Shown here: positions 1,300 to 63,689 of the stretch, piece by piece
Layout: the number at the start of each line of letters is the position of its first letter
Position numbering within the stretch: the stretch's first letter is position 1
Assembly (NCBI GenBank): GCA_050949055.1
Contig: JBMNFA010000006.1
Coordinates: 11,759-75,758 of the forward strand
Length of the DNA stretch: 64,000 nucleotides
Reading direction: 5' to 3'
Origin: Bacillota bacterium
GTDB taxonomy: Bacteria; Bacillota; UBA994; UBA5500
Translations under genes and position numbers: made by a program
Notes under the pieces: generated by a model
Database searches by the model: none
The model's input: the letters and a program-made list of their open reading frames with translations, nothing else
What the model was told of the DNA's origin: nothing

Positions 1300-1398
1300 T
1301 TTGATAACCTCCTCTACTTTTTTCCAATGTTCGTGTTCTGAACCTCATCTTCAGCGCGTTTCAGGCTAGCCTGAAGCCGGCGAGTTGACTGGGGCAAC

Positions 1399-2499: not shown

Positions 2500-2821
2500 G
2501 ATATCAACACCTCTCCTTCTGAGTTGGGGTTACCTCTAGTCTCTGACTATTGCTGCTGGTTTAACCTCCTTTCTGCTCAGGAAAATGCCCCGTGTTACAG
2601 GATATGCAACTCAAGCGAAAAAGGCAGAGCAGCCGCAGGAGTCGCTCCCGCACCGCTCTGACCACCTCTTGATCTGGCTGCTGGGTTTGCACTATGGCGC
2701 AAGTGGGCATTTCGACGGGCTTTCTGTGCCGCAGCAGTTGGTTCCTGAGTGCTATCTATTGTGCCAGAAAGTTAGGCCATAGTTTATGCCTATATTACAA
2801 TTAAACGAAGCATACTGTCAA
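2500..2821 (-). promoter_or_regulatory. gcvT leader. It has a sigmaA-type promoter (tgtcaa 2816-2821 is the reverse complement of TTGACA, atatta 2793-2798 the reverse complement of TAATAT, 18-bp spacer), a ~290-nt 5' UTR, and an intrinsic terminator at 2618-2660 followed by a U-run. It is a candidate glycine riboswitch or attenuator.
   Basis: Promoter hexamers and terminator hairpin (cagagc...gcucug + UUUUU) read directly from the sequence. The leader contains CUCAGG...GCACAGAA and GGUCAGAG segments resembling glycine-aptamer 3' halves, but the GGAGAG/CCGAAGG cores are not clearly present. Confidence 0.4.
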
Positions 2822-3059
2822 TCGTTCTAGCCGGCGTTCCAGGCAAGCGGATTTGGCTTCTGCATTTTCCTTCCTCCTAGTTTGAGGGAAGGCAAGCGAA
2901 GGCTGTCAGAGGCCGTGAGGATTGCAGCAGAAAGCTACGGTCTCGGCTGGCTGCTGCTGCCGACGGCAACGGCTTCTCATCTCCTTGTGCTTTGCGGTAG
3001 AGCAGGATCGGATTGCAGGATTGACGAAGTAGTCCCTCAGACTTGAGGAGGGATGAACA

Positions 3060-4391
3060 ATGACGTCATTTCGATTTGTTGCTGCCGGCGATGCCATCAT
3101 CACCAAGCGTTGCTCCCAGAAGAAGGACCCAGCCTTTCTGGCTATGGTTGAACTGATCCGTCAGGCCGACGCCGCCTTCGTCAATCTGGAAGTGGTCACA
3201 CCCCGCCCGCCACTGATCCCTTCGGCTGAGCACGGCGGCTCCAATTTGGGGGCTCACGAGTTTGTGCTGGACGAGCTGAAATGGATGGGCTTCAACCTAT
3301 TCAACGTAGCGACCAATCACTCCAACGATTACACATTCCACGGCTTGCTGGATACCATGGACGCCTTGAGGGAGCGGGATATGGTCTTTGCCGGCGGAGG
3401 GCACAACTTAGGCGAGGCCCGTTCGCCTGCATACCTGGATACTGCTGATGGGCGTGTGGGCCTGCTGGGGGCGACTTCCAGCTTCGTTGTCGGTGCTCCA
3501 GCCGGACCTTCCCGGGCAGATATGCCTGGACGCCCCGGCATCAGCCCGTTGCGTGTAGACTACGAATACGCGCTGGATCAGCGCCACTTCGACGCGCTGG
3601 CAGCCATCGACGAAGCTCTTGGGACAGCCCAAGTATCGCGGGAAAGGTTGGCACTGGCGCGGGCGGTGCAGCCGGATGGGGAGATAAACTTTCTGGGACA
3701 ACGTTTCATCAGAGGAGAGGTCACTGCCATCAAGGAACGCGTGAATCAGAGGGATTTGGACGACATCTGCCGCTGGATTCACGACGCCGAGCGCCAGGCA
3801 GAGTTCGTGGTGATGAGTCTGCATGCCCATCAGGGGAAGGGTCGGCGGGGCAACTCGCCATGTTTGGCAGATTTCTTGCCCGAGGTGGCCCATCGTTTCG
3901 TCGATGCCGGTGCCGACGTGGTGGTCGGTCACGGTCCCCACATGCTCAGGGCCATGGAGGTCTATCAGGGGAAGCCGATTTTCTACTCGTTAGGTGATTT
4001 CTACTATGTCAGTTCCGGTATTCAGCGCTATCCAGCCGAGATCTATCAACGGCTGGGATTGCCGGACAACGCTACCCCAGCCGACGTGCAGGACTTCAAC
4101 AACCAGGATAAGGATGGCAATCCCCGGGGATTTGCCGCCGATGAGCGGTTCTGGCAATCGGTGATCCCGGTTTGCCAGTACGAGGATTGGCAGCTGACAT
4201 CGCTGGAGCTGCATCCGATCGAGCTCAACTATCGCGCCCGCCATCGTTCGATGCGCGGCGAGCCTCGTCTGGCTAATGTGGAGATGGGGACCGATATCCT
4301 GCAACAGCTGCAGCGTCTCTCGGAGCCCTTCGGCATCAAGATCGACATCCGTCAGTCCGGCCAGCATGTGATCGGTCACGTCAGCTGGTAA
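3060..4391 (+). CDS. CapA family protein (poly-gamma-glutamate synthesis / metallophosphatase-like)
   Basis: 443-aa ORF, N-terminus FRFVAAGDAIITKR..., metallophosphoesterase-like motifs; paralogue of 11447-12757. Confidence 0.75.
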   Translation: MTSFRFVAAGDAIITKRCSQKKDPAFLAMVELIRQADAAFVNLEVVTPRPPLIPSAEHGGSNLGAHEFVLDELKWMGFNLFNVATNHSNDYTFHGLLDTMDALRERDMVFAGGGHNLGEARSPAYLDTADGRVGLLGATSSFVVGAPAGPSRADMPGRPGISPLRVDYEYALDQRHFDALAAIDEALGTAQVSRERLALARAVQPDGEINFLGQRFIRGEVTAIKERVNQRDLDDICRWIHDAERQAEFVVMSLHAHQGKGRRGNSPCLADFLPEVAHRFVDAGADVVVGHGPHMLRAMEVYQGKPIFYSLGDFYYVSSGIQRYPAEIYQRLGLPDNATPADVQDFNNQDKDGNPRGFAADERFWQSVIPVCQYEDWQLTSLELHPIELNYRARHRSMRGEPRLANVEMGTDILQQLQRLSEPFGIKIDIRQSGQHVIGHVSW

Positions 4392-4403
4392 GAGGATAAG
4401 TAA

Positions 4404-4434
4404 TGCAAAAACGGGGACAGTCCCCGTTTTTGCA
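4404..4434. terminator. perfect 31-bp palindrome tgcaaaaacggggacagtccccgtttttgca (REP family A); bidirectional intrinsic terminator
   Basis: Inverted repeat read directly, flanked by convergent gene ends (4391 + strand, 4445 - strand). Identical copies at 9929-9959 and 24286-24316. Confidence 0.7.
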
Positions 4435-4444
4435 TTCTTGAAGG

Positions 4445-4807
4445 TTAGCAGCGTTCCACGCTCTTGGTGGCGATCACGTCCACACCCAGCCCGGCCACGT
4501 CCCTGATCAGCACTTGGCCGATGGTCACCGGTGCAGCTACCTGCGTTGCTTTGATCGCATCCATCACTTTGAAGATGCTTCGCTTCGGAATCACATCGGT
4601 CAACCGCACGCTGACCAGCGGCAGTTTTCCATCGTTCACCTTGATGGAAGAGGCGATGTTCCGTTTGGGGTCAAGGATCTCTTGGGTGACGTAATCCTTT
4701 CCCCGTTTGCAGAGCGCCCCGCTGATCGAGATGACGCGAGGACCGTCGACCTCAGCGGTGATGTCGCAACCGTTAGGACAGACTATGCAGACGAAGCTTC
4801 TATGCAT
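4445..4807 (-). CDS. DUF1667 domain protein (Cys-rich, predicted metal-binding)
   Basis: 120 aa with CxxCxxGC at the N-terminus; last gene of a three-gene oxidoreductase cluster. Confidence 0.65.
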   Translation of the reverse strand: MHRSFVCIVCPNGCDITAEVDGPRVISISGALCKRGKDYVTQEILDPKRNIASSIKVNDGKLPLVSVRLTDVIPKRSIFKVMDAIKATQVAAPVTIGQVLIRDVAGLGVDVIATKSVERC

Positions 4808-6110
4808 GCTCCAACACCACCTTGATGTTGTTCTTGCTCACCAACTGTTGCTGTTTCAGGTGCAGGTGGATCATTTCGGCCGGCACAGCCTTCGTCAACC
4901 GCTTGCTGGCGACAGTGGTTTCATCTTGCAGCAATCGGATGCGGCAGTCGCGCAGCGGCCTCCTCACCCGCAGCGAGATCTGGCAGTCACCTGTGTCGCA
5001 GATCCTTTGAGGCACGGTGTAGCCAATATTGGCGTCCGTCTCAATCAGAATGGCTGCATCCTCGTCCTGACCCTGCTGCAGCCAATCGGCCACTGCCTTG
5101 GACAATCTCTCTGCCTCCAAAGACACAAAATCTACCAAATCATGCACATGTAGCACGTTGCCGGCGGCGAAGATGCCAGGCACACTAGTCTGATAGCGCT
5201 CGTCCACCAACGCCCCCCTGGTCCGGGGGTCGAGCTGTACGCCAGCCATCAACGACAGTTCATTTTCTGGAATCAACCCGACCGACAGGATCAGCGTGTC
5301 ACAGGCGTAGTGCCGTCCGCTGCCCTTGATCGGCTGCAGCTGTTCATCCACCTGGCTGACGGTCACCCCTTGCAGGCGGCCCTCGCCGTGGATCTCGGTT
5401 ACGGTGTGGCTCAGATACAGTGGTATCTGGTAGTCGTTTAGGCACTGTTCGATGTTGCGTGGCAGGCCGCTGGGATAGGGCAGAATCTCAAACACCGCTT
5501 CCACCTTCATCCCTTCCAGCGTCATCCGTCGAGCCATAATCAAGCCGATGTCCCCCGAGCCCAGGATGACGGCCCGCTTCCCCACCATGATATTCTTCAG
5601 GTTCATGTAGGCCTGGGCTACTCCCGCAGTGTAGACGCCTGCCGGCCGCGAACCCGGTATGCTGATCGCTCCTCGAGTTCTCTCCCTGCAGCCCATGGCC
5701 AGCACCACTGCCTTAGCCTCGTATTCCAACAGCCCTCGCCTGGACGCTGCCAGAACGCGCCTGTTTTGATCCAGCCTGATCACCGTGGCCTCGGTGACAT
5801 ACTCGATACCCAGTTGCTGTACCTGATCGATAAAGCGGGCGGCGTACTCCGGTCCGCTCAGCGCCTGTTGAAAGCGGGTGATGCCGAAGCCGTCATGGAT
5901 GCACTGCCTGAGAATGCCCCCCAAATGCTTTTCCCTCTCCAGGATGACCACGTCGTTCACGCCCAGTTCCTTCAGCTTCACCGCCGCCGCCAGCCCTGCC
6001 GGTCCGCCGCCGATGATCACCACATCGGCTTTAATAGGCGACCTGCAACCTGCAACCATGGGGCCGTAGCTCCCGCAACCGTCGTTATGCATCGATTTGC
6101 TTACTGCCAT
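4800..6110 (-). CDS. NAD(P)/FAD-dependent pyridine nucleotide-disulfide-type oxidoreductase
   Basis: GGGPAGL dinucleotide-binding motif and a second Rossmann motif GSGDIGL. The start is most likely the ATG at 6108-6110, which overlaps the upstream stop (ATGA); the ORF track's longer N-terminus overlaps the upstream gene. Confidence 0.8.
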   Translation of the reverse strand: MAVSKSMHNDGCGSYGPMVAGCRSPIKADVVIIGGGPAGLAAAVKLKELGVNDVVILEREKHLGGILRQCIHDGFGITRFQQALSGPEYAARFIDQVQQLGIEYVTEATVIRLDQNRRVLAASRRGLLEYEAKAVVLAMGCRERTRGAISIPGSRPAGVYTAGVAQAYMNLKNIMVGKRAVILGSGDIGLIMARRMTLEGMKVEAVFEILPYPSGLPRNIEQCLNDYQIPLYLSHTVTEIHGEGRLQGVTVSQVDEQLQPIKGSGRHYACDTLILSVGLIPENELSLMAGVQLDPRTRGALVDERYQTSVPGIFAAGNVLHVHDLVDFVSLEAERLSKAVADWLQQGQDEDAAILIETDANIGYTVPQRICDTGDCQISLRVRRPLRDCRIRLLQDETTVASKRLTKAVPAEMIHLHLKQQQLVSKNNIKVVLEHA

Positions 6111-7567
6111 CAGTTGCGCACCTTCCCTGTGAACATATTTGATCCTGCTCTGGCGTAGGTGAGTTTTTCTACCGGCAGCCCGTGCTTGGCCAGCAGCAGC
6201 TCGGCGATGCGCATTTGGCAGTATCCTCCCTGGCACCTGCCCATCATCGCCCTGGTGCGATTCTTAATCCCCACCACCGTGCTGACCCCCAGGGGGTTGT
6301 TGATGGCGGCCATGATCTCCGCTTTGGTCACCGTCTCGCACCGGCAGATGATTTCGCCGTAATCAGGGTCCGTCGCAATTAGCTGCTGTTGCACTTCTGG
6401 TGGTTGCTCGGCGAAAGGAACGATACCTTTGCGCATCGGGTTGAACGTTTGGTTCTTTTCCAGGGCCATCTCTTCCCCGAGCAGTTCCACCACCCGCCGG
6501 GCGATAGGAACGGCGCTGGTGAGGCCGGGGGACTCGATACCCACCAGATTGATAAAATGGGGAACCTCGGGCCGCTTCTCGATCACGAAGTCGGCGAAGC
6601 CACCTTGTTCCTTGCTGACCAGCTTGGGCCGGATGCCGCAGAAATTGCGGATAAAGAATTCCCGCTTGATATGGGGGAATATTCGGCTGCCATCTTTGAT
6701 CAACAGGTCCATAATCTCCTGGGTGGCCGCATAGTCATCCCGGGCGTCGATGTACTCGGTGCTGGGCCCGATTAACACATTGCCATCGATGGTGGGGGTG
6801 ATGTGTATACCCAGTCCACCCTCTTTGATGTTGGGCACCGGATAGGCAGGGATGTCCAAGTATTCGCCCACCCGCTGATCTAGAATGAAGTACTCTCCTC
6901 GGCAGGGGTAGATGGTATAGTCGTCGATGCCGACCATGCGGCAGATAGTGTCTGCGTGCAGGCCGGCGCAGTTGATCACCCACTGGGCTAGATACTCGCC
7001 CTGAGAGGTGATTACCCGGTAGACGGAGCCTTCCCGCAATATCTGCTGCACCTGGTGGTCGAACTTAAAGGCCACACCATTTTGATAGGCATTCTCAGCC
7101 AGCGCCACCGTATAGATGAACGGGTTGAGAATGGCGGTGGTAGGGGAATAGAGGGCGAACCTGCCGCGGACATGGGGTGCCAGTTGCTGCAGCCTGTCCT
7201 GCCCAATCAACTCCAGCCCGGGCACGCCATTGGCTTCCCCCTGAGCCTTCAGTTCCTCCAGCTTCTTGCGGTCGGCGTTGTCAAACCCAACTACCACCTT
7301 GCCTGTCCTCTTGAAGGGAATGTCCAGCTCTTTGGCTACGGTGTCAAACTCAAGATTTCCCTGCACGCAGTATTTGGCCATCAGCGTGCCCGGCCGGTTG
7401 TTGAAGCCGGCGTGCAGCACCCCAGAGTTGCGCCCGCTGGTCTCGCTACATACGTCCAGCTCCTTCTCCAACACGCAAACCTTCAGTTTGTAGCGGGAGA
7501 TTTCCCGGGCGACTGCGCTGCCTACCACTCCCGAACCGATGATAATTACGTCAAAGTCCTGCCCCAT
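6110..7567 (-). CDS. FAD-dependent oxidoreductase, GlpA/GlpD-like, with C-terminal BFD-like [2Fe-2S] domain
   Basis: N-terminal IIGSGVVGSAVARE FAD motif; C-terminal CRCETVT...CQGGYC BFD-like cysteines. Confidence 0.8.
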   Translation of the reverse strand: MGQDFDVIIIGSGVVGSAVAREISRYKLKVCVLEKELDVCSETSGRNSGVLHAGFNNRPGTLMAKYCVQGNLEFDTVAKELDIPFKRTGKVVVGFDNADRKKLEELKAQGEANGVPGLELIGQDRLQQLAPHVRGRFALYSPTTAILNPFIYTVALAENAYQNGVAFKFDHQVQQILREGSVYRVITSQGEYLAQWVINCAGLHADTICRMVGIDDYTIYPCRGEYFILDQRVGEYLDIPAYPVPNIKEGGLGIHITPTIDGNVLIGPSTEYIDARDDYAATQEIMDLLIKDGSRIFPHIKREFFIRNFCGIRPKLVSKEQGGFADFVIEKRPEVPHFINLVGIESPGLTSAVPIARRVVELLGEEMALEKNQTFNPMRKGIVPFAEQPPEVQQQLIATDPDYGEIICRCETVTKAEIMAAINNPLGVSTVVGIKNRTRAMMGRCQGGYCQMRIAELLLAKHGLPVEKLTYARAGSNMFTGKVRN

Positions 7568-11446: not shown

Positions 11447-12757
11447 CTACTCACCGATGCGTATGTATCCAACCCCATCGCAGACCTCGATCTTTGTGCC
11501 GAAGGGGGCGGACAGCTCCGCCAAGTAGTTGAGCACCTCGTCGTCTTGCAGCAGGGCGGGCAACCCTTTGCGGGAGCGGGGAAGGGTCATGTTCAGCGTG
11601 ATCGGATAGAGCTGAATCCCGGTCAATTTGCCATCCTCCATGGTCCATCCGGCCATGACTGACAGCCAGATGTTCGGCTGCACGCCGTAACCGGTGGTTC
11701 CGTTCTTGCTGCGATTGTCCATATAGGCCCCCACCTTGGTGTCCAGCGGCATGCCTCGGTTGATATAGGCATCGGCCGGTTGCAGGTCGACCGTTTCGGT
11801 CTGGAAGATGAAGTTTCCCAGACTGTAGAAGATGGGCTTGCCAGCGTAGATTTCAATGCCCCGCAACTCGTGGGGCCCATGCCCGATGATCCCGTCTGCT
11901 CCCGCGTCGATGCAGTTGCGGGCGAAGGTGCGCAGAAACTCCGCCGGTTTGGTGATATCTATCCCGTCAGCTTCGTGGGCATGGATGCTGACCAGCACGT
12001 AATCGGCCTGCTTGCGGGCTTCCCTGATCTCGCCCGCGATGCGCTCCATGTCCACCGGCAGCGGATGGGTGTGCATACCGTTTTCTTCGGAACAGACAAA
12101 GCTGAGGCCGCCAAAGGTGAGCGTGCCGGGCGCAGGCGGGTTGCGATAGCCGTTCTTGATGCTGCGCTCAGCGGCAGCGTTGATTGACGTAGCCTTGGCG
12201 ATCTGCTCTAGCGCAGCGAAGTGCTTCTGTTCCACATGGTAGCGGGTGACGTAACGCAGTGGGTTGAGACCGGGGCGACCCTGCATATCCCCACTTTGGG
12301 CGCCAGCGGCCCCTGACTCGTGGAACGATGAGGAGGCTGCAATCAGCGCTATCCTGGCGTTGTCGCACTCCAGGTAAGCGGCACGGGAAGCATCCCCCAG
12401 ATGTTTTCCGGTGCCGGCAAAGACCATCTGGCGGTCTCGCAGGTGCCTAATGGTGGCCAGCACCCCACCGTGGCTGTAATCGTGGGAATGGTTGTTGGCC
12501 GTATTGTAGAGGTTGAACCCGAATTCCTGGATATCGTCCAGAATACTGGGCGAGGCCATCGCCCAAGTTCCCCCGCTGAAGGCCGCCGGATAACCCTCAT
12601 GATCGTGGAACGTCATTTCCAGGTTGGAGAATTTGACATCGTGTTGCTGGATAATTCGTTTCACTTGGGCAAAGCCTGGATAGGCTTTAGGGACGCGGCG
12701 GGTGATGAAGGCGTCCCCGGTAGCGATAAAGGTTGTCTTGCTGGACATTAGGTGCAC
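11447..12757 (-). CDS. CapA family protein, paralogue 2
   Basis: 436 aa, N-terminus FIATGDAFITRR... parallel to 3060-4391; same motifs. Confidence 0.75.
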   Translation of the reverse strand: MHLMSSKTTFIATGDAFITRRVPKAYPGFAQVKRIIQQHDVKFSNLEMTFHDHEGYPAAFSGGTWAMASPSILDDIQEFGFNLYNTANNHSHDYSHGGVLATIRHLRDRQMVFAGTGKHLGDASRAAYLECDNARIALIAASSSFHESGAAGAQSGDMQGRPGLNPLRYVTRYHVEQKHFAALEQIAKATSINAAAERSIKNGYRNPPAPGTLTFGGLSFVCSEENGMHTHPLPVDMERIAGEIREARKQADYVLVSIHAHEADGIDITKPAEFLRTFARNCIDAGADGIIGHGPHELRGIEIYAGKPIFYSLGNFIFQTETVDLQPADAYINRGMPLDTKVGAYMDNRSKNGTTGYGVQPNIWLSVMAGWTMEDGKLTGIQLYPITLNMTLPRSRKGLPALLQDDEVLNYLAELSAPFGTKIEVCDGVGYIRIGE

Positions 12758-14751: not shown

Positions 14752-15603
14752 CTAACTCCCTTCTCGGCCACGCAGGTATCTCTTCTCTATCCAGGCCACC
14801 AGTTGATACATCAGCGCGGCGGCGATGGATAGCAGGATGACGCTGGTCATCACCAGGTTCATGTTCAACACTTGGCCTCCGTAGATGGCCAGGTACCCCA
14901 GTCCAGCTTTAGAAACCAGGAACTCGCCCACAATTACCCCCACAAAGGACAAGCCAACATTTACTTTCAATGCAGAGATGATGGTGGGGATGCTGGCTGG
15001 AACCACTACCTTGCTCAGGATCTGCCACCTGCTGGCACCGAAAGTCCTTACGAGCTTCACCTGGTTTTGGTCCACTTCTTTGAATCCGGTGAAGACAACC
15101 ATGATGGTGGTGATCAGGGAGATGGCCAAAGCCATGGCCACAATAGCCACCTGAGTCGTGCCCAGCCAGACTATGAACAACGGACCTAACACTATCTTGG
15201 GCAGGCTATTCAGTACCACCAGGTAGGGGTCCATCACTTTGGCCAGAAATTCTGACCACCAGAGCACGATGGCCACGATCGTCCCCACCAAGGTGCCCAA
15301 CAGGAAGCCGATGGCTGTCTCGGTGCAGGTGACTAACAGATGACGATACAGGCTGCCGTCGGTATGTAGCCTGACCATGGTGCTCCAGATGCGGGAGGGT
15401 TGGCTGACCAGGAACGGATCTATCCATTCTTGGTAGGCAGCAATCTCCCAAGCCGCAAAGCAGACCACCAGAATGGCCAGCTGTGTCAGCACGATAGTCA
15501 ATCGACGTTTCCAATGCCGCCAAATGTACTGGGCGTGCTCCGGTGTTTCCGCCGAGCTAGTGATCCTGTTGCGCAACCGAGTCCACGGGTTGTACATGCA
15601 CAT
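14752..15603 (-). CDS. ABC transporter permease (NitT/TauT/Ssu-type)
   Basis: Multi-TM ORF with an EAA-like loop; the start is probably an internal Met (the ORF-track N-terminus overlaps the upstream ATPase). Confidence 0.75.
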   Translation of the reverse strand: MCMYNPWTRLRNRITSSAETPEHAQYIWRHWKRRLTIVLTQLAILVVCFAAWEIAAYQEWIDPFLVSQPSRIWSTMVRLHTDGSLYRHLLVTCTETAIGFLLGTLVGTIVAIVLWWSEFLAKVMDPYLVVLNSLPKIVLGPLFIVWLGTTQVAIVAMALAISLITTIMVVFTGFKEVDQNQVKLVRTFGASRWQILSKVVVPASIPTIISALKVNVGLSFVGVIVGEFLVSKAGLGYLAIYGGQVLNMNLVMTSVILLSIAAALMYQLVAWIEKRYLRGREGS

Positions 15604-16354
15604 CCAACTCCTCCCAGATGCGGTTAAAGAAACGGCCAAAGGCAGGTGACCGGCGAGATTGCATGGGGGTCAGGTGGGCGTCGTCCAGTTCGATGTAGAT
15701 ATCTGCCTTGATTCGACCGGGGCGCTTGGTCAACACAATTACCCGGTCGCACATGGCCACCGCTTCCGGTATGTCATGGGTGACCAGGAGCACCGTTTTT
15801 CCAGCCTTCTTCAAAATCCCTTCCACCTCGTCCTGCATGGTCAGCCGGGTCTGATAGTCCAGGGCGGAGAAGGGTTCATCCAGAAGCAACACGCTGGGAT
15901 TGGTGGCCAGGGTGCGGATTAGCGCTGCCCGCTGTCGCATGCCTCCAGAGAGCTGACTGGGGAAGCGTTGGCGAAAGCCCCCCAGTCCGTAGCCTTGCAG
16001 CATATCGGCCACCGCCTGGACGCTAGTCTGGCTGCATTGTCTGGTCAATTCTAGACCCAGCCGACAATTGCGTTCGATGGTGCGCCAGTCAAACAGATAG
16101 TCCTGTTGCAGCATATAACCTACCTGGGCTGTTGACCCGGTCACCTCTTTGCCATCGATCAACACTTGGCCTGAGGTCGGTTTGAGCATACCAGCAATTA
16201 GGGAGAGCAACGTGCTCTTACCACTCCCACTGGGGCCAACAATGCCGACGAATTGTCCCTTTTCCACTTTCAGGGACAGATTGCTGATGGCATGGGTAAC
16301 TCCAGATAGGGTCATGTACTCCAACGACACATCCCGCAGCTCTATGTGAGCCAT
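15557..16354 (-). CDS. ABC transporter ATP-binding protein (NitT/TauT family)
   Basis: Walker A GPSGSGKST, signature LSGGMRQR, Walker B LLLDEPFSALD. Confidence 0.85.
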   Translation of the reverse strand: MAHIELRDVSLEYMTLSGVTHAISNLSLKVEKGQFVGIVGPSGSGKSTLLSLIAGMLKPTSGQVLIDGKEVTGSTAQVGYMLQQDYLFDWRTIERNCRLGLELTRQCSQTSVQAVADMLQGYGLGGFRQRFPSQLSGGMRQRAALIRTLATNPSVLLLDEPFSALDYQTRLTMQDEVEGILKKAGKTVLLVTHDIPEAVAMCDRVIVLTKRPGRIKADIYIELDDAHLTPMQSRRSPAFGRFFNRIWEELDVHVQPVDSVAQQDH

Positions 16355-16371
16355 TGCCCTCCTCCTTCTCC

Positions 16372-17385
16372 CTATCTGATCGTCTTTACCGCTTCCTCGG
16401 CAAAATCGGTGTTGGCTATGCGGCTATACTCCACTGGTTCGTCCAATTCTCCAGCTTCAATCATGATCCGCTGCAATTGATCAAACCAGGCCTCTGGTAT
16501 GACTGGATTGCTGGCCCAAGCATCTAACTCCTGATATCGCTCTATGACGGTAGTCAAGATGTCCATATTGGCATCTGGGAAAGCAGGGGCGATTACTTCG
16601 GCGATTTCTCTCGGCGTGTGGGACTGCATCCACAGCTGTGCTCGATAGATGGCGTTGGTGAACTTTTGTACCGTATCCGGGTTTTCCTTTATGTAGTTGG
16701 CCGTGGCATGGAAGGTGGTGTAGGGCAGCAACCCACTGCCTTCGCCCAAAGCGGCCACGATCACCCCTGCATTCTCCTGCTCCAGGATGCTGGGGGAGGG
16801 TTCCCAGAGTTGTACGTAGTCCCCCGTACCTTCTTTGAACGCCAGGGCGGTGGCGTCCAGGGCGATGCTCTGGATAATCTCCACATCCTGAAAAGGCACA
16901 ATTCCATCCTGCTTCAAATTCCACTCCAGTACCATCTGCGGCACCCCACCTTTGCGTCCGCCGATGATCACCTTGCCTGCGGTATCCCGCCAGCGGAAGT
17001 CCGGCTCCTCGACCCGGCCTACCAGGAACGAGCCGTCGCGCTGTGTGCAGGCGGCGAAAGCGATAATCGGATTGCTGGCGCCTTGCTTGGTGGCATACAC
17101 AGCCTGTTCGGAACCAAACAGGGCGAACTGGGCACTGCCCGAGAGGATGGCTGCAGCGCCTTTGTCAGCACCCTGAGCCACCTCCAACACCACGTCCAGC
17201 CCTTCATCTTTGAAGAAGCCGTTATGTATCGCTACATATTGTGGACAGTAGAAGATGGAGTGAATAACCTCCGAGAGTACGACCCTCTGCAGCTCGTCTT
17301 CAGTTGCTTCCCGCGGCTTGCATCCTGCCAACGACCCGAGCATCACCAACAGCAGTGCGGCGATAACCAATATGCGACCTTTCAT
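16372..17385 (-). CDS. ABC transporter substrate-binding lipoprotein (NMT1/THI5-like)
   Basis: Signal peptide plus lipobox LAGC; SsuA/NMT1-like periplasmic binding fold. Confidence 0.75.
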   Translation of the reverse strand: MKGRILVIAALLLVMLGSLAGCKPREATEDELQRVVLSEVIHSIFYCPQYVAIHNGFFKDEGLDVVLEVAQGADKGAAAILSGSAQFALFGSEQAVYATKQGASNPIIAFAACTQRDGSFLVGRVEEPDFRWRDTAGKVIIGGRKGGVPQMVLEWNLKQDGIVPFQDVEIIQSIALDATALAFKEGTGDYVQLWEPSPSILEQENAGVIVAALGEGSGLLPYTTFHATANYIKENPDTVQKFTNAIYRAQLWMQSHTPREIAEVIAPAFPDANMDILTTVIERYQELDAWASNPVIPEAWFDQLQRIMIEAGELDEPVEYSRIANTDFAEEAVKTIR

Positions 17386-18271: not shown

Positions 18272-19444
18272 ATGAAGATCAAAGTGGAAGAAATGGTTGC
18301 TGTTCTGCAGCAACAAATGCTCAGCTTCGCCAGTGACTTGGTCCGAATTGAGAGCCGCACCGGGCAGGAAGAACAGATAGTCAAGAGAATTGCTGAGGAG
18401 ATGCGTGGTCTCGATTACGATCAGGTGATCATCGATCGTACCGGAAACGTGATCGGGATCATCGGTAACGGTAGCGAGCGGCTGTTGTTTGACAGTCATA
18501 TCGATCACGTGGCCGTCAATGACGCAGATCAGTGGCAGTTCGATCCCTACGGCGGTGTGATCGCTAATGGTAAGCTATATGGCAGGGGCGCATCCGACAT
18601 GAAGGGGTCGGCTGCAGCCACTGTTTATGCGGGCGCGATCATCAAGCGGTTGGGCCTGGCCCAAGGCAAGACCATCTATGTCTGCTGCTCCGTCATGGAG
18701 GAGGATTACGACGGGGAAGGCCTTTACCGGGCAATCGTCGACAACCGGCTGGATCCCAACTATGTGGTCATCTGTGAACCTAGCCACCTGCAGATCTCCT
18801 TGGGACACTTGGGGCGTGCTATCTACAAGATCACCATGCCGGGAATCTCCGCCCACGGAGCTGCCCCAGAAAAGGGTGTGAATGCCGTCTATAGAATGGC
18901 CGAGGTCATATCCCGGATAGAGGCGTTGGCGGAGAAGTACATGCAGCTTCCCGGGGAGCGTCCCTCTATTGCCCTCTCCAAGATCGAGAGTACTGCAGTC
19001 TCTTTGAATGCAGTTCCCGATACCTGCACCGTCTACATAGACCGCCGCATGACTATGGGGGAGACTGAAGCGACTGTCGGCAAGGAGATGGATGCATTGG
19101 TGGCCGGGACCGAGGCCACTTGGTCGATCCACAACGCGCGGGGCGTCAGTTGGACGGGGGAGGAGATCGTGCTGCGCTCCTTCCTTCCCGCCTGGGAGAT
19201 TTCCCTGGAACACAAGCTGACCAAAAGCTGTATCTCGGCCTATTGGCTACTGAACAATGTTGAACCGAAAATGTATAAATGGGACTTCTCTACCAATGGT
19301 GTCGCTTCGGCAAGACTAGGAATACCTACCATCGGTTTTGGTGCCGGCATTGAGAAAATGGCTCACATGACCAACGAATACTGTCCTGTATCGGATATTG
19401 TCGCTGCGTGTAAATTCTATGTGATGCTGGTGCACTGTCTCTAG
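18272..19444 (+). CDS. M20 family metallopeptidase (ArgE/DapE/YgeY-like)
   Basis: HIDHVAV...GRGASDMKG metal-binding motifs, 390 aa. Confidence 0.8.
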   Translation: MKIKVEEMVAVLQQQMLSFASDLVRIESRTGQEEQIVKRIAEEMRGLDYDQVIIDRTGNVIGIIGNGSERLLFDSHIDHVAVNDADQWQFDPYGGVIANGKLYGRGASDMKGSAAATVYAGAIIKRLGLAQGKTIYVCCSVMEEDYDGEGLYRAIVDNRLDPNYVVICEPSHLQISLGHLGRAIYKITMPGISAHGAAPEKGVNAVYRMAEVISRIEALAEKYMQLPGERPSIALSKIESTAVSLNAVPDTCTVYIDRRMTMGETEATVGKEMDALVAGTEATWSIHNARGVSWTGEEIVLRSFLPAWEISLEHKLTKSCISAYWLLNNVEPKMYKWDFSTNGVASARLGIPTIGFGAGIEKMAHMTNEYCPVSDIVAACKFYVMLVHCL

Positions 19445-25020: not shown

Positions 25021-26898
25021 GTGCCCGGCATGGGCGCTATCTACTAGGTGAAAGTCCTAAGCGGTGAAGGTAGCAGTAGCCGTAGCCTAAGGCAAGGGTG
25101 TCCACCGCGAGGTGGAATCTGAAGGAAGCCGGCGGCAAACTTCCGGCCTGAGGAACACATATCAGCTCATATGAGGCCAGTGACAGTTGGATGAGTCTGC
25201 AGCACAAGGCAAAGTCCATGCTACCGAAGGTTGTTGCTGGTAAATGAGACGGGTAGATGGAAGGAAAGATAGCGCTCTTACCCGGGGAGGCCTGCCAGGT
25301 ACGCCGACAGAGTTGGCAACCCAGACAGTGATGCCTGGCTGAACTGGCAGGAGTCAGCAGAGGCCATAGTACCTGAAGAGATATCGCTTCAGGGAAGGGC
25401 CGAACGCGAAGAAAGGAGAGCAACCGATGAGCTCGCATGGGAAGCAACGACAGCAGAAAATCCCGCAAGGGAGCTACCAGCAGGAGGAAGCAGTGAATCT
25501 GCAGGGGACTGCCGGAGCGCCTAGTTTCCCGACGGCGCGAATCGAGGAGCAATCCTGCCGGAACTGGACACATCTGATGGAGAACGTCGTATCAGAACGG
25601 AATATGAGAGAAGCGTACAAACGCGTCCTTCGGAACAAAGGAGCGGCCGGGATTGACGGAGTGGAGGTTCAGAACCTGAAACCATACCTCTGGGAACACT
25701 GGCCGCGCGTTAAGCAGGAACTGCTCGCGGGAACCTACAAGCCAAGCCCAGTCCGTCGGGTCGAAATCCCGAAACCAGACGGCGGAGTAAGGCTGCTAGG
25801 GATACCCACCGTCCTGGACCGGCTGATCCAACAAAGCCTACTACAAGTAATGAACTTCATCTTCGATCCTGACTTCTCTGAATACAGCTTCGGCTTCCGC
25901 CCTCGCCGCAGCGCGAGACAGGCGGTAACCAAAGCTAAGCAATATATCAACGAAGGCTACCGCTATGTTGTGGACATGGACCTGTCTAAGTTCTTCGACA
26001 GAGTCAACCATGACATATTGATGGCAAAGGCGGCCCGTGTAATCGGAGATAAACGAGCCCTGAAAGTTATCCGCGCATACCTCGAAGCCGGAGTCATGGT
26101 CAATGGCGTGGTACAGGAGACTGAAGAAGGGACACCTCAAGGTGGCCCGCTCAGTCCACTCCTGGCAAACATCATGCTGGATGAACTGGACAAAGAGCTA
26201 GAGAAACGGGGACACAGGTTCGTCCGTTACGCAGATGACTGCAACATTTATGTCAGAAGCAAACGGGCAGGAGAGCGAGTGATGAAGAGCATTCGCAACT
26301 TCGTGGAAGGCAAGCTTAAGCTGAAAGTCAACGAGGAGAAAAGCGCTGTTGACCGACCTTGGAAGCGCAAGTTTCTGGGGTTCTCATTCACTTCTCAACG
26401 CGAAGCCCGTATCCGAATAGCTCCTAAAACCAAACAGAGAGTCAAGGACAAAATACGGGAACTAACCAGCAGGCGCAAAAGTATGAGCATGGAAGCTCGA
26501 ATCATATCGCTAAACATGTACCTGCGTGGATGGATGGGATACTTCAAGTTGGCCGAAACTCCAAGTGTGTTCCGCGAACTTGATGAGTGGATTCGACGCC
26601 GCTTGCGCATGTGCTTGCTGAAGCAGTGGAAGAAGCCGAAAACCAGGAGGAGCGAGCTGATTAAGCTTGGCATCTCACCAGAGTCAGCTAAGAAGATTAG
26701 CGGATCACGCAAAGGTTACTGGCGACTCGCACTCACTCCACAACTAAACAAAGCCTTAGGCCTCCAGTACTGGAAGGCCCAAGGCTTATTCAGCTTAACT
26801 TCAGCATTGCCCAAAGGTTAAACTTCGCGAACCGCCGTATACCGAACGGTACGTACGGTGGTGTGAGAGGACGGGGGTTAGTCACCCCCTCCTACTCG
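25021..26898 (+). mobile_element. bacterial group II intron, class C-like (inserted directly 3' of a hairpin; RT/maturase without endonuclease domain)
   Basis: Starts GUGCCCGG right after REP-B. It contains the RT/maturase ORF. Domain V-like gaaccgccgtataccgaacggtacgtacggtgg lies at 26829-26863 and a domain VI hairpin with a bulged A at 26863-26897. The 3' boundary is approximate. Confidence 0.7.
25427..26821 (+). CDS. group II intron reverse transcriptase/maturase
   Basis: RT motifs 0-7 (...RVEIPKPDGGVRLLGIPTVLDRLIQ..., YADDCNIYV) plus the maturase X domain; 464 aa. Confidence 0.9.
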   Translation: MSSHGKQRQQKIPQGSYQQEEAVNLQGTAGAPSFPTARIEEQSCRNWTHLMENVVSERNMREAYKRVLRNKGAAGIDGVEVQNLKPYLWEHWPRVKQELLAGTYKPSPVRRVEIPKPDGGVRLLGIPTVLDRLIQQSLLQVMNFIFDPDFSEYSFGFRPRRSARQAVTKAKQYINEGYRYVVDMDLSKFFDRVNHDILMAKAARVIGDKRALKVIRAYLEAGVMVNGVVQETEEGTPQGGPLSPLLANIMLDELDKELEKRGHRFVRYADDCNIYVRSKRAGERVMKSIRNFVEGKLKLKVNEEKSAVDRPWKRKFLGFSFTSQREARIRIAPKTKQRVKDKIRELTSRRKSMSMEARIISLNMYLRGWMGYFKLAETPSVFRELDEWIRRRLRMCLLKQWKKPKTRRSELIKLGISPESAKKISGSRKGYWRLALTPQLNKALGLQYWKAQGLFSLTSALPKG

Positions 26899-31878: not shown

Positions 31879-31986
31879 ATGGGGAACAGCTTGTTGGCGG
31901 TGAAGGAAAAGCTTTATCAACTGCAGCTGGAATTGCTGCAACAAGCCACGGGGACGGTTCGGCTGACTCATCGCAACGAGTCATGA
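31879..31986 (+). CDS. Spo0E-like small ORF truncated by IS insertion (MGNSLLAVKEKLYQLQLELLQQATGTVRLTHRNES)
   Basis: SD GGAGGG 5 nt before the ATG. The helical LxxLxxEL...G.LTH pattern is like Spo0E-family phosphatases. Its stop codon is the terminal TGA of the IS. Confidence 0.3.
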   Translation: MGNSLLAVKEKLYQLQLELLQQATGTVRLTHRNES

Positions 31987-32258
31987 GGTGCCCCCTGTCG
32001 AGTTGACAAACGAAATAATGAAAGCGTTTGCTCCTTAGGAATGACCCTGAGGAGCCTTCTTTCTTGGGATGTCTTAAGCAATACAGCCAATGGTTGCTGG
32101 CCACGGCTCTCCCTGTCGGAGCCCTGAGCAGTACCACAGGGTGAGTCCCTTGACCCCTGTGCTACAATTTTGTGCGCAGAGGGGCGATGAGGTATCTGCT
32201 GTGCTCTCCCTACCATCGCCCCTCGCACCTTCGTTAAGCACAGGGAGTCAAGGGCGAT

Positions 32259-33017
32259 TTATGCACACATTCTGTACTCCATCGGGGTCAGACCAGAAAA
32301 CTTCCTTTGCGGTCGTTCTTCGTTGTAGAAGCGTATATAGTCACTTACGTCGGCTACCAGATCTTCGTAGCTCTCGTAATACTTTCTTAGGTTGTAGCGC
32401 TCTGCTTTGGGCTTGCCCCAAAATCCTTCCATGGGGCCATTGTCAATGCAGCGGCTTACTCTTGACATGCTTTGGATCATGCCCTGATTCGTGATAATCT
32501 TGGCAAAACCATAGGAAGTATATTGGAAGCCTCTATCGCTGTGAATGAGGGGCTGTGCTTCTGGATTGGCCTTCAAGGCTGCCTGCAATGTGCTAAAGAC
32601 AAGCTTGTTGTTATTCCTCTTACCAATGACATAGGCAACAATACTGTTGTCGTAAAGGTCGAGAATGGCGCTCAGGTATGCTTTCTGACCGTCGCCATAC
32701 TTGAACTCGGTTACATCTGTAAGCCATTTCTGGTTCTTCCTCAAAGCTGTGAACTTTCTGTTCAGCAGGTTCTCAGCAACATGTCCAGGCGAAGACTTTT
32801 TGTATTGTCTGCGTTTCTTTCGAGTGACCGATTTCAGACCCATAAGTCGCATCAACCGATAGATTCGTTTGAGGTTGTACGTTGCCTGTAGCCTCCGGTT
32901 CACGACCAGTTGCATCATCCTGTAGCCGTAGATACCCTTGACCTCCAGGTAGATACCAGCTATTGTGTCAGCGATTAACTCGTTTGTCCGCTCTCGCTCA
33001 CTTGGTTCCTTCTTCAA
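32259..33017 (-). CDS. IS3-family transposase OrfB (DDE integrase core); expressed as an OrfAB fusion by -1 frameshift
   Basis: IHSDRGFQYTS DDE-core motif; -1 frame relative to orfA. Confidence 0.85.
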   Translation of the reverse strand: MKKEPSERERTNELIADTIAGIYLEVKGIYGYRMMQLVVNRRLQATYNLKRIYRLMRLMGLKSVTRKKRRQYKKSSPGHVAENLLNRKFTALRKNQKWLTDVTEFKYGDGQKAYLSAILDLYDNSIVAYVIGKRNNNKLVFSTLQAALKANPEAQPLIHSDRGFQYTSYGFAKIITNQGMIQSMSRVSRCIDNGPMEGFWGKPKAERYNLRKYYESYEDLVADVSDYIRFYNEERPQRKFSGLTPMEYRMCA

Positions 33018-33133
33018 ATAATTGTAGTGCGCCTGGCGGCTGATGTTGGCAACCCTGCATAACTCAGAGATAGAGTGGCCTTTGCTGTGCAGTTCGTGGA
33101 TTGCCTGATGGAGTTTAAATCGTGGAACTCGGC

Positions 33134-33811
33134 CTAGCGATACCTCTTCTCGAGTTCCTCCAATTTTTTTAGGAATGCGTTCTCCACGCTCAGTCTGCGA
33201 ACTTCCTTCTGCAGATTACGAAGCTCAATCTTCAGCCGATCGGCCTCTGTCAACTCAGTTTCCTCTTTGGCTTTGCCTCGGCGGTCAACAAGTGCCTTCT
33301 CTCCGCCTTTGTTATACTTACTAACCCAAGAGTGAACCTGCTGGTAGCTGACCTTATAGAGCTCCGCTGCCTCCCGGTAGTTACAGTCATTGGCTATACA
33401 ATGTTGGACAATCTCTATACGCTCATCGTAGGTGGTTCTCCGCCCTTTGTTCATGTCTCTGGATTCCCCTCCTGGAGAAGACTTGAGTTCTTCTCCTTGA
33501 GTATACTTGAAAATCCAGCGCCGAAGTTGCGTTTCCTCCCTTATGCCGTACCTAAGGCAGATGTCCATTTGAGAGCCTTCTCCCGTCAGGTAGGCTTGTA
33601 CAGCTTGCATCTTAAGCTCAGCAGGATAATGATTACTACTCAATTGCCCGACCAGGGAGTCTATACCATATTCCTGTAACCTAATACGCCATCGACGTAT
33701 TGTACTCTTGCCTACGTTGAACCTGGAAACTGCCTCTTTGACTGGATGCCCTTCATCAATCCATGCAAGTATTCGTAGCTTCTCTCCCAAAGTGAACTTG
33801 CGTCCGGACAA
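33134..33811 (-). CDS. IS3-family transposase OrfA (HTH)
   Basis: HTH-rich 225 aa ending ...FLKKLEELEKRYR just after the AAAAAAA frameshift site. Confidence 0.85.
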   Translation of the reverse strand: MSGRKFTLGEKLRILAWIDEGHPVKEAVSRFNVGKSTIRRWRIRLQEYGIDSLVGQLSSNHYPAELKMQAVQAYLTGEGSQMDICLRYGIREETQLRRWIFKYTQGEELKSSPGGESRDMNKGRRTTYDERIEIVQHCIANDCNYREAAELYKVSYQQVHSWVSKYNKGGEKALVDRRGKAKEETELTEADRLKIELRNLQKEVRRLSVENAFLKKLEELEKRYR

Positions 33812-33916
33812 AAGAATGCCCCCCCCCTCAGCGACTGATGAATTTTCGTTATTTCATCTGTCAACTTTGGGGGGAGCACATCAGTCGGACCGTCCCCGTG
33901 GCTCAATTTCAGGCTA

Positions 33917-60198: not shown

Positions 60199-60264
60199 TG
60201 TGACAGAGGGACGGATCTTTTGTCACACGCGGCGTGTGACAAAAGATCCGTCCCTCTGTCACAT
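60198..60264. repeat. REP family D: intact 67-bp palindrome gtgtgacagagggacggatcttttgtcacacg-cgg-cgtgtgacaaaagatccgtccctctgtcacat
   Basis: Near-perfect 30-bp arms; the same element is split by IS copy 2 at 61726-61765 / 63664-63689. Confidence 0.8.
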
Positions 60265-61032: not shown

Positions 61033-61068
61033 ACGGGGAGTGGCCAAGGGCCACTCCCCGTGATATTT
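61033..61068 (+). terminator. intrinsic terminator cggggagtggcc-N5-ggccactccccg followed by a T-run
   Basis: 12-bp stem read directly, between convergent genes. Confidence 0.6.
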
Positions 61069-61076
61069 TCCACCGG

Positions 61077-61712
61077 CTAAACGAGGCCAGATCGTGCGTG
61101 TTGCTGTGCTGCCCTTTCCGGCTTCCACTCCTGCCAGATGCGTCCTGCCGTCTGCAGGTCCCCAGACAAGGCGCTGTCTCCGGGTTGCCAACCGGCGGGT
61201 ATGGAAGCCCCGCTGCTCTGTTGCTCTTGGCAGGCCTGGATGATCCTGATCAATTCATCCACGTTGCGGCCAACCGAAGAGGGCAGGACCTCCACCAACT
61301 GCACCACTCCTTGGGGATCTATCAGGAAGTGCGCCCGTTGATTTACTCCCTGCTGCTGGTCGTAGGTGCCGAACATGCTGCCCAACTTCCCACCGCGGTC
61401 TGCCCCTAGTGGGAAGGGTACCGCTGCGCCGATCAATTCCTTCAGTTCAACCTCGTCCCACAGCTTGTGTGCGTTGACGCTGTCCACGCTGACACCAATT
61501 ACCTCGACGCCCAGCTCCTGCAGTTTGGGATAGCGCACGGCCATCATGGCTATCTCGGTCGGTCAGACTGGCGTGAAGTCTCCGCTATAGAAGTGCAACA
61601 CATGCCAGCGCCCGCTCAGTTCAGACGAGTGCATCTGGCGACTGCCGCCTTCTTGGTACACTTCCAACGACCAGCTGGGCGAGGCCGATCCCACGGTGGG
61701 AAACATAGGCAT
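61077..61712 (-). CDS. peroxiredoxin (AhpC/Prx1 subfamily) with an in-frame TGA at the peroxidatic-Cys position; candidate selenocysteine peroxiredoxin, about 211 aa
   Basis: The reading frame is continuous from ATG 61710-61712 (SD ggagg) through the TGA at 61563-65 (minus strand): ...VLHFYSGDFTPV-U-PTEIAMMAVRY...GVEVIGVSVDS, which matches FYPLDFTFVCPTE of Prx. A hairpin lies 9 nt downstream of the UGA (61529-61554). The resolving Cys is absent (SIPAGW instead of VCPAxW). Confidence 0.6.
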
Positions 61713-61725
61713 ACCTCCAATCGTA

Positions 61726-61765
61726 TGTGACGGAGGGACGGATCTTTTGTCACACGCGTGTGACA
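61726..61765. repeat. REP family D left half, interrupted by IS copy 2
   Basis: tgtgacggagggacggatcttttgtcacacgcgtgtgaca abuts the IS terminus. Confidence 0.75.
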
Positions 61766-62040
61766 TGAGGTGCCCCCTGTCGAGTTGACAAACGAAATAA
61801 TGAAAGCGTTTGCTCCTTAGGAATGACCCTGAGGAGCCTTCTTTCTTGGGATGTCTTAAGCAATACAGCCAATGGTTGCTGGCCACGGCTCTCCCTGTCG
61901 GAGCCCTGAGCAGTACCACAGGGTGAGTCCCTTGACCCCTGTGCTACAATTTTGTGCGCAGAGGGGCGATGAGGTATCTGCTGTGCTCTCCCTGCCATCG
62001 CCCCTCGCACCCTCGTTAAGCACAGGGAGTCAAGGGCGAT

Positions 62041-62799
62041 TTATGCACACATTCTGTACTCCATCGGGGTCAGACCAGAAAACTTCCTTTGCGGTCGTTC
62101 TTCGTTGTAGAAGCGTATATAGTCACTTACGTCGGCTACCAGATCTTCGTAGCTCTCGTAATACTTTCTTAGGTTGTAGCGCTCTGCTTTGAGCTTACCC
62201 CAAAATCCTTCCATGGGGCCATTGTCAATGCAGCGGCTTACTCTTGACATGCTTTGGATCATGCCCTGATTCGTGATAATCTTGGCAAAACCATAGGAAG
62301 TATATTGGAAGCCTCTATCGCTGTGAATGAGGGGCTGTGCTTCTGGATTGGCCTTCAAGGCTGCCTGCAATGTGCTAAAGACAAGCTTGTTGTTATTCCT
62401 CTTACCAATGACATAGGCAACAATACTGTTGTCGTAAAGGTCGAGAATGGCGCTCAGGTATGCTTTCTGGCCGTCGCCATACTTGAACTCGGTTACATCT
62501 GTAAGCCATTTCTGGTTCTTCCTCAAAGCTGTGAACTTTCTGTTCAGCAGGTTCTCAGCAACATGTCCAGGCGAAGACTTTTTGTATTGTCTGCGTTTCT
62601 TTCGAGTGACCGATTTCAGACCCATCAGTCGCATCAACCGATAGATTCGTTTAAGGTTGTACGTTGCCTGTAGCCTCCGGTTCACGACCAGTTGCATCAT
62701 CCTGTAGCCGTAGATACCCTTGACCTCCAAGTAGATACCAGCTATTGTGTCAGCGATTAACTCGTTTGTCCGCTCTCGCTCACTTGGTTCCTTCTTCAA
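62041..62799 (-). CDS. IS3-family transposase OrfB (copy 2)
   Basis: Near-identical to 32259-33017 (one P/L difference). Confidence 0.85.
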   Translation of the reverse strand: MKKEPSERERTNELIADTIAGIYLEVKGIYGYRMMQLVVNRRLQATYNLKRIYRLMRLMGLKSVTRKKRRQYKKSSPGHVAENLLNRKFTALRKNQKWLTDVTEFKYGDGQKAYLSAILDLYDNSIVAYVIGKRNNNKLVFSTLQAALKANPEAQPLIHSDRGFQYTSYGFAKIITNQGMIQSMSRVSRCIDNGPMEGFWGKLKAERYNLRKYYESYEDLVADVSDYIRFYNEERPQRKFSGLTPMEYRMCA

Positions 62800-62915
62800 A
62801 TAATTGTAGTGCGCCTGGCGGCTGATGTTGGCAACCCTGCATAACTCAGAGATAGAGTGGCCTTTGCTGTGCAGTTCGTGGATTGCCTGATGGAGTTTAA
62901 ATCGTGGAACTCGGC

Positions 62916-63659
62916 CTAGCGATACCTCTTCTCGAGTTCCTCCAATTTTTTTAGGAATGCGTTCTCCACGCTCAGTCTGCGAACTTCCTTCTGCAGATTA
63001 CGAAGCTCAATCTTCAGCCGATCGGCCTCTGTCAACTCAGTTTCTTCTTTGGCTTTGCCTCGGCGGTCAACAAGTGCCTTCTCTCCGCCTTTGTTATACT
63101 TACTAACCCAAGAGTGAACCTGCTGGTAGCTGACCTTATAGCGCTCCGCTGCCTCCCGGTAGTTACAGTCATTGGCTATACAATGTCGGACAATCTCTAT
63201 ACGCTCATCGTAGGTGGTTCTCCGCCCTTTGTTCATGTCTCTGGATTCCCCTCCTGGAGAAGACTTGAGTTCTTCTCCTTGAGTATACTTGAAAATCCAG
63301 CGCCGAAGTTGCGTTTCCTCCCTTATGCCGTACCTAAGGCAGATGTCCATTTGAGAGCCTTCTCCCGTCAGGTAGGCTTGTACAGCTTGCATCTTAAGCT
63401 CAGCAGGATAATGATTACTACTCAATTGCCCGACCAGGGAGTCTATACCATATTCCTGTAACCTAATACGCCATCGACGTATTGTACTCTTGCCTACGTT
63501 GAACCTGGAAACTGCCTCTTTGACTGGATGCCCTTCATCAATCCATGCAAGTATTCGTAGCTTCTCTCCCAAAGTGAACTTGCGTCCGGACAAAAGAATG
63601 CCCCCCCTCAGCGACTGATGAATTTTCGTTATTTCATCTGTCAACTTTGGGGGGAGCAC
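62916..63659 (-). CDS. IS3-family transposase OrfA (copy 2; N-terminally extended reading frame from a GTG near the IR because of a 7-C rather than 9-C tract)
   Basis: Same protein as 33134-33811 with 22 extra N-terminal residues. Confidence 0.8.
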   Translation of the reverse strand: MLPPKLTDEITKIHQSLRGGILLSGRKFTLGEKLRILAWIDEGHPVKEAVSRFNVGKSTIRRWRIRLQEYGIDSLVGQLSSNHYPAELKMQAVQAYLTGEGSQMDICLRYGIREETQLRRWIFKYTQGEELKSSPGGESRDMNKGRRTTYDERIEIVRHCIANDCNYREAAERYKVSYQQVHSWVSKYNKGGEKALVDRRGKAKEETELTEADRLKIELRNLQKEVRRLSVENAFLKKLEELEKRYR

Positions 63660-63663
63660 ATCA

Positions 63664-63689
63664 ACAAAAGATCCGTCCCTCCGTCACAC
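63664..63689. repeat. REP family D right half
   Basis: acaaaagatccgtccctccgtcacac immediately after the IS. Confidence 0.75.

Follow-up and report, generated by a model that had tools for sequence, protein, structure and literature searches.

What lies at positions 61077 to 61712 of the Bacillota DNA analyzed here (a stretch of 64 kb, hereafter the window)? On the minus strand, a single reading frame, MFPTVGSASPSWSLEVYQEGGSRQMHSSELSGRWHVLHFYSGDFTPV-TGA-PTEIAMMAVRYPKLQELGVEVIGVSVDS..., ends at a TAG at 61077–61079 and contains one internal stop, a TGA at 61563–61565. Read through that codon, the frame is a coding sequence of 209 codons (61077–61706), with the TGA as codon 48, and it is preceded on the same strand by a Shine-Dalgarno motif, GGAGG, at 61714–61718. 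Two ATG codons are candidates for the start: the one at 61712 leaves 1 nt between itself and the GGAGG, and the one at 61706 leaves 7 nt. The homologue L001 (79% amino acid identity) has an identical layout, GGAGGAATGTCTATG, and its N terminus, MFPTVG, is that of the window protein when translated from 61706. Because of this spacing and the shared N terminus, the ATG at 61706 is the likelier start. Public annotation holds a 158-aa “redoxin domain-containing protein” (MGI6358555.1; 61077–61550 in the window), and the NCBI, JGI, and Logan gene calls all cover the part after the TGA alone (156–158 aa).

The gene is flanked by a terminator-like structure on one side and by repeats and a mobile element on the other. 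A GC-rich hairpin with a 13-bp stem (61033–61061) follows closely after the stop codon, in the gap between two convergent genes. Upstream, 47 nt from the Shine-Dalgarno motif, is an IS3-family insertion sequence (IS; 61766–63663) that, like the peroxiredoxin gene, is oriented along the minus strand; it carries orfA (62916–63659) and orfB (62041–62799) and has a 3-bp ACA target duplication. A second copy at 31982–33883, again with orfA and orfB on the minus strand, is 99.3% identical. The upstream IS, inserted into one of the arms, splits a 62-nt palindromic element, whose gene-proximal part (61726–61765) ends 7 nt before the Shine-Dalgarno motif and whose remainder lies at 63664–63688. We considered whether the 25-nt inverted repeats at 61726 and 63664 could be the termini of the IS and rejected the idea, because the second IS copy shows that they are palindrome arms split by the insertion. 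An intact, perfect 65-nt palindrome with 32-nt arms (TGTGACAGAGGGACGGATCTTTTGTCACACGC) is found at 60199–60263, between a PNP gene and a 220-aa gene, and it resembles repeats of the REP or MITE type. No sigma-70-like promoter was found between the IS and the peroxiredoxin gene, so the gene would need transcripts that start in the IS or pass through it to be expressed. The arrangement of IS and gene is the same in independent samples.

Two further features of the window deserve mention in their own right. A group II intron occupies 25101–26821 on the plus strand: Rfam places its D1–D4 domains at 25101–25400 (126 and 76 bits), and these are followed by a 464-aa ORF (25427–26821) that we take to be the reverse transcriptase/maturase of the intron. 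There are also two paralogous CapA-family proteins, at 3060–4391 (plus strand) and 11447–12757 (minus strand), whose best NCBIfam match is MslH, the lasso-peptide C-terminal Trp epimerase, at ~290–300 bits against a cutoff of 700.

With Cys put in place of the stop, the product of the frame matches Pfam AhpC-TSA (PF00578) at 1.9e-29 over residues 5–136, and the nearest solved structures, at ~1e-31 across the whole domain, are typical 2-Cys Prx/AhpC enzymes (PDB, e.g., 6j13, 4o5r, and 1qmv). When the product is aligned with homologues of both the Sec and the Cys type, the TGA occupies the column of the invariant peroxidatic Cys, with T45-P-V-U48 in the place of TxxC, and the invariant residues D43, F44, T45, V47, E51, and R124 are all retained. 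The initial annotation had described a single minus-strand frame with a Shine-Dalgarno motif, a TGA exactly at the peroxidatic Cys of AhpC/Prx1 enzymes, conserved residues on both sides of it, and a replaced resolving Cys (SIPAGW), and all four observations hold. The classical resolving position is Ile, and the VCPxxW motif of typical 2-Cys Prx is therefore absent. The full PxxxTxxU motif is also incomplete: Thr45 and Arg124 are present, and position −7 is Ser, as it is in L001. C159, the sole Cys of the window protein, lies in a helix motif, QACQ. As an alternative resolving Cys it is unsupported, since it aligns with the Phe of a QAFQ helix motif and since the same position is Cys in a Cys-form homologue already equipped with a resolving Cys of its own.

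Is the interrupted frame real, and is it maintained? Across the whole gene, and at the TGA as well, contigs from three JGI samples and one Logan assembly match the window at 100% identity. Since four independent assemblies agree, the TGA is not a sequencing error; none of them has TGC or TGT in its place, a possibility that the initial annotation had raised. TGA also ends 9 of the 38 well-formed genes of the window, among them splB, etfA, and etfB, so the standard code applies and TGA is a normal stop here. When the gene is compared with that of L001, synonymous sites are saturated (pS of 0.95 on the upstream side of the TGA and 0.80 on the downstream side), whereas pN is only 0.12 upstream and 0.11 downstream. 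With pN far below pS on both sides of the codon, a pseudogene and the annotated truncated product are ruled out, and on this comparison both halves are kept as protein under purifying selection. Together with the conserved position of the TGA in relatives, this bears out the earlier proposal of recoding rather than decay.

How widely is the TGA conserved? The five closest proteins (P0001–P0005) in a database of ~5.8 billion sequences are all ~150-aa calls that comprise only the part after the TGA, and on each of their contigs the truncated call is preceded by a short N-terminal AhpC-TSA ORF. Translated through, these loci contain exactly one stop, always TGA and always at the same codon, at identities to the window protein of 79% down to 44%. 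More broadly, every close homologue, from 79% down to 41% identity and in several phyla, has TGA at this codon. The codon is TGA in all of L001–L011, and in the TGA-form contigs whose gene calls were looked up (L001–L006) the gene is split into two ORFs. When one genome per species was scanned, the five best relatives—an unclassified metagenome-assembled genome (MAG), Desulfothermobacter acidiphilus, two Anaerolineae MAGs, and one Spirochaetes MAG—were all TGA forms, the best at 43% identity, and the remoter genome matches that were read (L012–L014 and L017) had TGT or TGC. Stops or frameshifts at varied positions in relatives would have marked the gene as a pseudogene, as the initial annotation pointed out; every one of them has instead a single TGA at the identical codon.

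The TGA form is also abundant. A TGA-specific DNA pattern (DFTxV-TGA-xTE) scanned against metagenomes gave at least 90 matches, and 90 of the 90 listed are true peroxiredoxin frames, representing 80 distinct sequences. Moreover, Prx (TxxU) is listed among the prokaryotic selenoprotein families with experimental verification and ranks among the prominent ones in (marine) metagenomes (PMC13188914, PMC9312934), and a PrxU-annotated protein has been reported in Sulfobacillus proteomics (PMC7409299). The initial annotation, which confined the known Sec-containing peroxiredoxins to a handful of anaerobic Firmicutes, is thus wrong on this point: they are common, not rare, and most of the claimed rarity is gone. 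What is uncommon is the residue at position −7. Among the 80 distinct TGA forms listed, it is Pro in 77, Arg in one, and Ser only in the window and L001, the latter being the one further member of the window's subclade among these forms.

How does the window protein compare with peroxiredoxins already described? A Sec-containing peroxiredoxin, PrxU, was reportedly described by Soehling et al. in 2001 from Eubacterium (Peptoclostridium) acidaminophilum. Like it, the window protein has an AhpC/Prx1-type fold, a UGA at the peroxidatic position (TxxU) predicted to specify Sec, and a candidate SECIS inside the coding sequence just after the UGA. Its best NCBIfam model is also PrxU (NF040737, peroxi_PrxU; 222.7 bits, 5e-66). 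The score nevertheless lies under the equivalog cutoff of 270 bits; the match covers profile positions 37–232 of 233 and leaves 1–36 unmatched, and Ser stands for the Pro of PxxxTxxU. Typical 2-Cys Prx (AhpC, Prx1/Prx2) share with the window protein the active-site Thr and Arg and the PAGWxPG motif. Unlike them, it has the putative Sec for the peroxidatic Cys and Ile for the resolving Cys, and the 2-Cys intersubunit disulfide cycle therefore cannot operate.

A more extensive likeness is to the group that we call class A, which includes D. acidiphilus, Anaerolineae, Spirochaetes, and many JGI contigs (64 sequences within L002–L011 and L094–L173). Its members are 41–50% identical to the window protein over the whole domain and carry TGA at this codon too. 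In these forms, as well, the C-terminal resolving position usually holds a residue other than Cys (Thr occupies the classical position in 47 of 64), and the GxVWxxWKP tail is shared. Class A differs in that at least 36 of its 64 sequences carry an N-terminal extension of ~35–45 aa with a conserved GC(V/A)(K/R)P motif, whose Cys may be the resolving residue of these forms; the window protein has no such extension. Position −7 is Pro in 63 of 64 class A members and Ser in the window protein.

Does the RNA after the UGA carry a signal of its own? Codons 54–62, at +19 to +45 after the UGA (61521–61547, minus strand), are the only nine-codon stretch without a nucleotide difference between the window and L001: all seven degenerate codons in it are unchanged, against a background in which 63% change (P ~9e-4). 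This invariant stretch is the probable core region of a SECIS. Within it, the window and L001 have in common a hairpin at +21 to +37 (61529–61545, minus strand), GAUGGC-CGUGC-GCUAUC, with a six-bp stem and a loop in which G at position 2 is followed by U. The criteria for bacterial SECIS elements (bSECIS; PMC13188914) are a loop of 3–9 nt on a stem of 4–16 bp, a G in the first two loop positions, a spacing of 16–37 nt, and a minimum free energy of at most −7.5 kcal/mol. The shared hairpin agrees in loop size, stem length, loop G, and spacing (23 nt), and its energy is −5.4 to −6.2 kcal/mol rather than the −7.5 kcal/mol called for. It thus resembles the Escherichia coli fdhF-type SECIS and the bSECISearch consensus in being a coding-sequence hairpin 16–37 nt after the UGA (here 23 nt) whose small apical loop (CGUGC) contains G followed by U, and departs from that consensus in being weaker and in being represented by two sequences only, the window and L001 (PMC13188914).

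A larger, bulged hairpin, GAUAGCCAUGAUGGCCGUGCGCUAUC, had been put forward in the initial annotation as lying in the position of a bacterial SECIS (61529–61554, minus strand; +12 to +37). It can indeed form, at −10.5 kcal/mol with the loop AUGGC, and its 3′ arm is shared with the +21 to +37 hairpin. It is not conserved, however: of the four synonymous differences from L001, two fall in its 5′ arm and a third changes the inner stem, and in L001 the structure does not form. With respect to the bSECIS criteria its energy fits, but the first two loop positions lack a G. Neither candidate hairpin therefore combines all four features, and Rfam gave no SECIS or other family at the locus, whether in a gathering-threshold scan of the whole window or in a permissive scan (E ≤ 10) of 61450–61650. 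The hairpin energy is not beyond chance in dinucleotide shuffles of the 66-nt region (z = +0.8), and we therefore dropped energy as evidence for the window gene; several Cys-form peroxiredoxins fold about equally well at the corresponding place. Overall, an RNA constraint after the UGA is well supported by the comparison of the two genes; its exact structure is not settled, and the +21 to +37 hairpin is the likeliest candidate for the core of the SECIS.

Among the relatives, the region after the codon is on average more stably folded in TGA forms than in Cys forms (mean −11.5 vs. −7.1 kcal/mol, p = 5e-4), and the 64 class A sequences have in common a SECIS of the form stem-(A/G)GU(U/C)-stem, with its loop at +21 to +24. 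Across 59 distinct rows of the class A alignment, 92.5% of cells are paired and 62 cells show double changes, compared with 20 ± 3 in shuffles; none of 500 shuffles reaches the observed value. When the 3′ partner was slid as a control, the covariation signal was lost, with a score of at most 0.154 compared with 0.390 in the true register, and pairing fell to 32–46% at every slide but one (81.6%). Because the covarying positions are synonymous third positions, protein constraint does not explain the pattern. A SECIS in the relatives is thus proven by covariation. A second class of 11 sequences (L094, L097, L098, L104, L108, L118, L125, L127, L141, L142, and L149) has a different element, GCUGCUC-UGGCA-GAGCAGC, with a 7-bp stem, a loop at +23 to +27, and the peptide ATEFAALAEQ; the stem is paired in all of them, with a few compensatory changes. 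The window gene differs from the common Sec-peroxiredoxins in its SECIS sequence and does not have the class A element; together with L001 it makes up a third class of its own, of two sequences.

Where is the machinery for Sec insertion? Three loci with homologues (L004, positions 1045–6495; L100, 1284–4627; and L123, 1180–5238) have selA and selB immediately next to the Sec-peroxiredoxin gene and a tRNA-Sec gene within the cluster, an operon-like association of a selenoprotein gene and the genes needed to decode it. The L004 cluster additionally carries a selD-like gene with an AIRS domain. In the 64-kb window itself, tblastn with the SelA, SelB, and SelD of L004 and a search with ARAGORN found no selA, selB, selD, or tRNA-Sec gene, and a search of the window for other TGA-split genes, as a proxy for Sec use, gave none that was convincing. 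The window does encode a YgeY-family “selenium metabolism-linked hydrolase” (18272–19444, plus strand; 406 bits against an NCBIfam cutoff of 321), which suggests selenium metabolism, though not specifically Sec decoding; no selD or molybdenum hydroxylase genes were seen near it. Also in the window is an ABC transporter (permease, ATPase, and binding protein; 14752–17385, minus strand) whose best NCBIfam matches are SaoP, SaoA, and SaoX, models of the Sec-assisted organometallic system. Because these scores are far under cutoff (e.g., 98 vs. 295 bits), the transporter is probably an ordinary one of the sulfonate/taurine type.

We therefore read the gene as a Sec-containing peroxiredoxin of the AhpC/Prx1 type, PrxU-like in a broad sense, in which UGA48 is decoded as Sec, and give this reading a probability of roughly 85%. 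The initial annotation had proposed the same recoding in a PrxU-like enzyme, and the proposal is upheld for the gene by a TGA conserved across phyla, selection on both sides of it, an invariant stretch of RNA after it, and PrxU being the best NCBIfam model; for the family it is upheld by SECIS covariation and selA/selB/selC adjacency in relatives. Actual Sec insertion in this organism, and expression of the gene despite the upstream IS, are predictions of this reading.

Three other explanations were weighed. The one that survives best, though we hold it to be improbable, is that the gene is a selenoprotein by descent that is now silent or decaying, either because the IS3 insertion separated the gene from its promoter or because the machinery for Sec was recently lost from the lineage. 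The IS at 61766–63663 is inserted in the palindrome directly upstream, a promoter-like site is absent between IS and gene, and sel genes were not seen in the 64-kb window, all of which would fit. Yet the ORF is fully intact, the stretch in the SECIS region is identical to that of L001, and independent samples show the same arrangement. Furthermore, the native immediate neighbor of the Shine-Dalgarno motif is the palindrome, not the IS, and the transposase genes are co-oriented with the peroxiredoxin gene, such that read-through or an outward promoter could drive expression. The intact ORF and the conserved RNA element, as judged from the aligned sequences, argue against long-standing silencing.

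It is considerably less probable that the UGA is read through without Sec, by near-cognate tRNAs that insert Cys or Trp, to give a low level of a Cys or Trp peroxiredoxin. This would accord with a Sec machinery that is presumed for this genome and with a +21 to +37 hairpin that is weak by the bSECIS energy criterion, but it leaves unexplained the strict conservation of TGA at one catalytic codon over dozens of lineages, the conserved or covarying RNA downstream of it, and the adjacency of selA, selB, and selC in relatives; moreover, a change from TGA to TGC or TGT is a single step that would be favored were Sec unavailable. Least probable of the three is that the public annotation is right and the locus encodes a truncated 156–158-aa redoxin-domain protein starting after the TGA, or is a pseudogene or an assembly error: the NCBI and JGI gene callers do mark the C-terminal ORF alone, but such a product would be missing its active-site residue along with the N-terminal strands of the fold, constraint on the first 47 codons is as strong as on the rest (pN 0.12 vs. 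pS 0.95), nothing else disrupts the frame, four assemblies agree on the TGA, and the same “truncation” recurs in all TGA-form homologues.

If the gene is a Sec-peroxiredoxin, as we favor, how would the enzyme be made and how would it work? SelB and Sec-tRNA(Sec) would decode UGA codon 48 under the direction of an RNA element that lies in the coding sequence at approximately +19 to +45. The Sec48 selenolate would then attack the peroxide, helped by the conserved Thr45 and Arg124. Because both the C-terminal resolving Cys (here Ile) and the N-terminal Cys extension are absent, an external thiol, for example that of thioredoxin, would probably reduce the resulting selenenic acid directly, in a cycle of the 1-Cys type.

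The gene is a somewhat divergent addition to a known enzyme class that public annotation has overlooked. MGI6358555.1, at present a protein of 158 aa, is most likely a 209-residue selenoprotein, and its sequence would mark this spore-forming Bacillota MAG as a probable user of Sec. Knowledge of Sec-peroxiredoxins dates back to 2001, and metagenomes contain them in abundance; the finding adds no new biology beyond these points of annotation and those that concern the subclade, a divergent one that curated PrxU models and SECIS rules miss. More tentatively, and with some doubt on our part, the window gene and L001 may represent a distinct short-form subfamily of Sec-peroxiredoxins—without the N-terminal Cys extension, with Ser for Pro, and with a SECIS class of its own that is weaker than the two common ones and unlike them in sequence—that escapes Rfam, rules of the bSECISearch type, and the PrxU cutoff of NCBIfam. 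In that case, surveys of the Bacillota selenoproteome would undercount such forms, and the replacement of Pro by Ser might show the active-site pocket adapting to a selenol.
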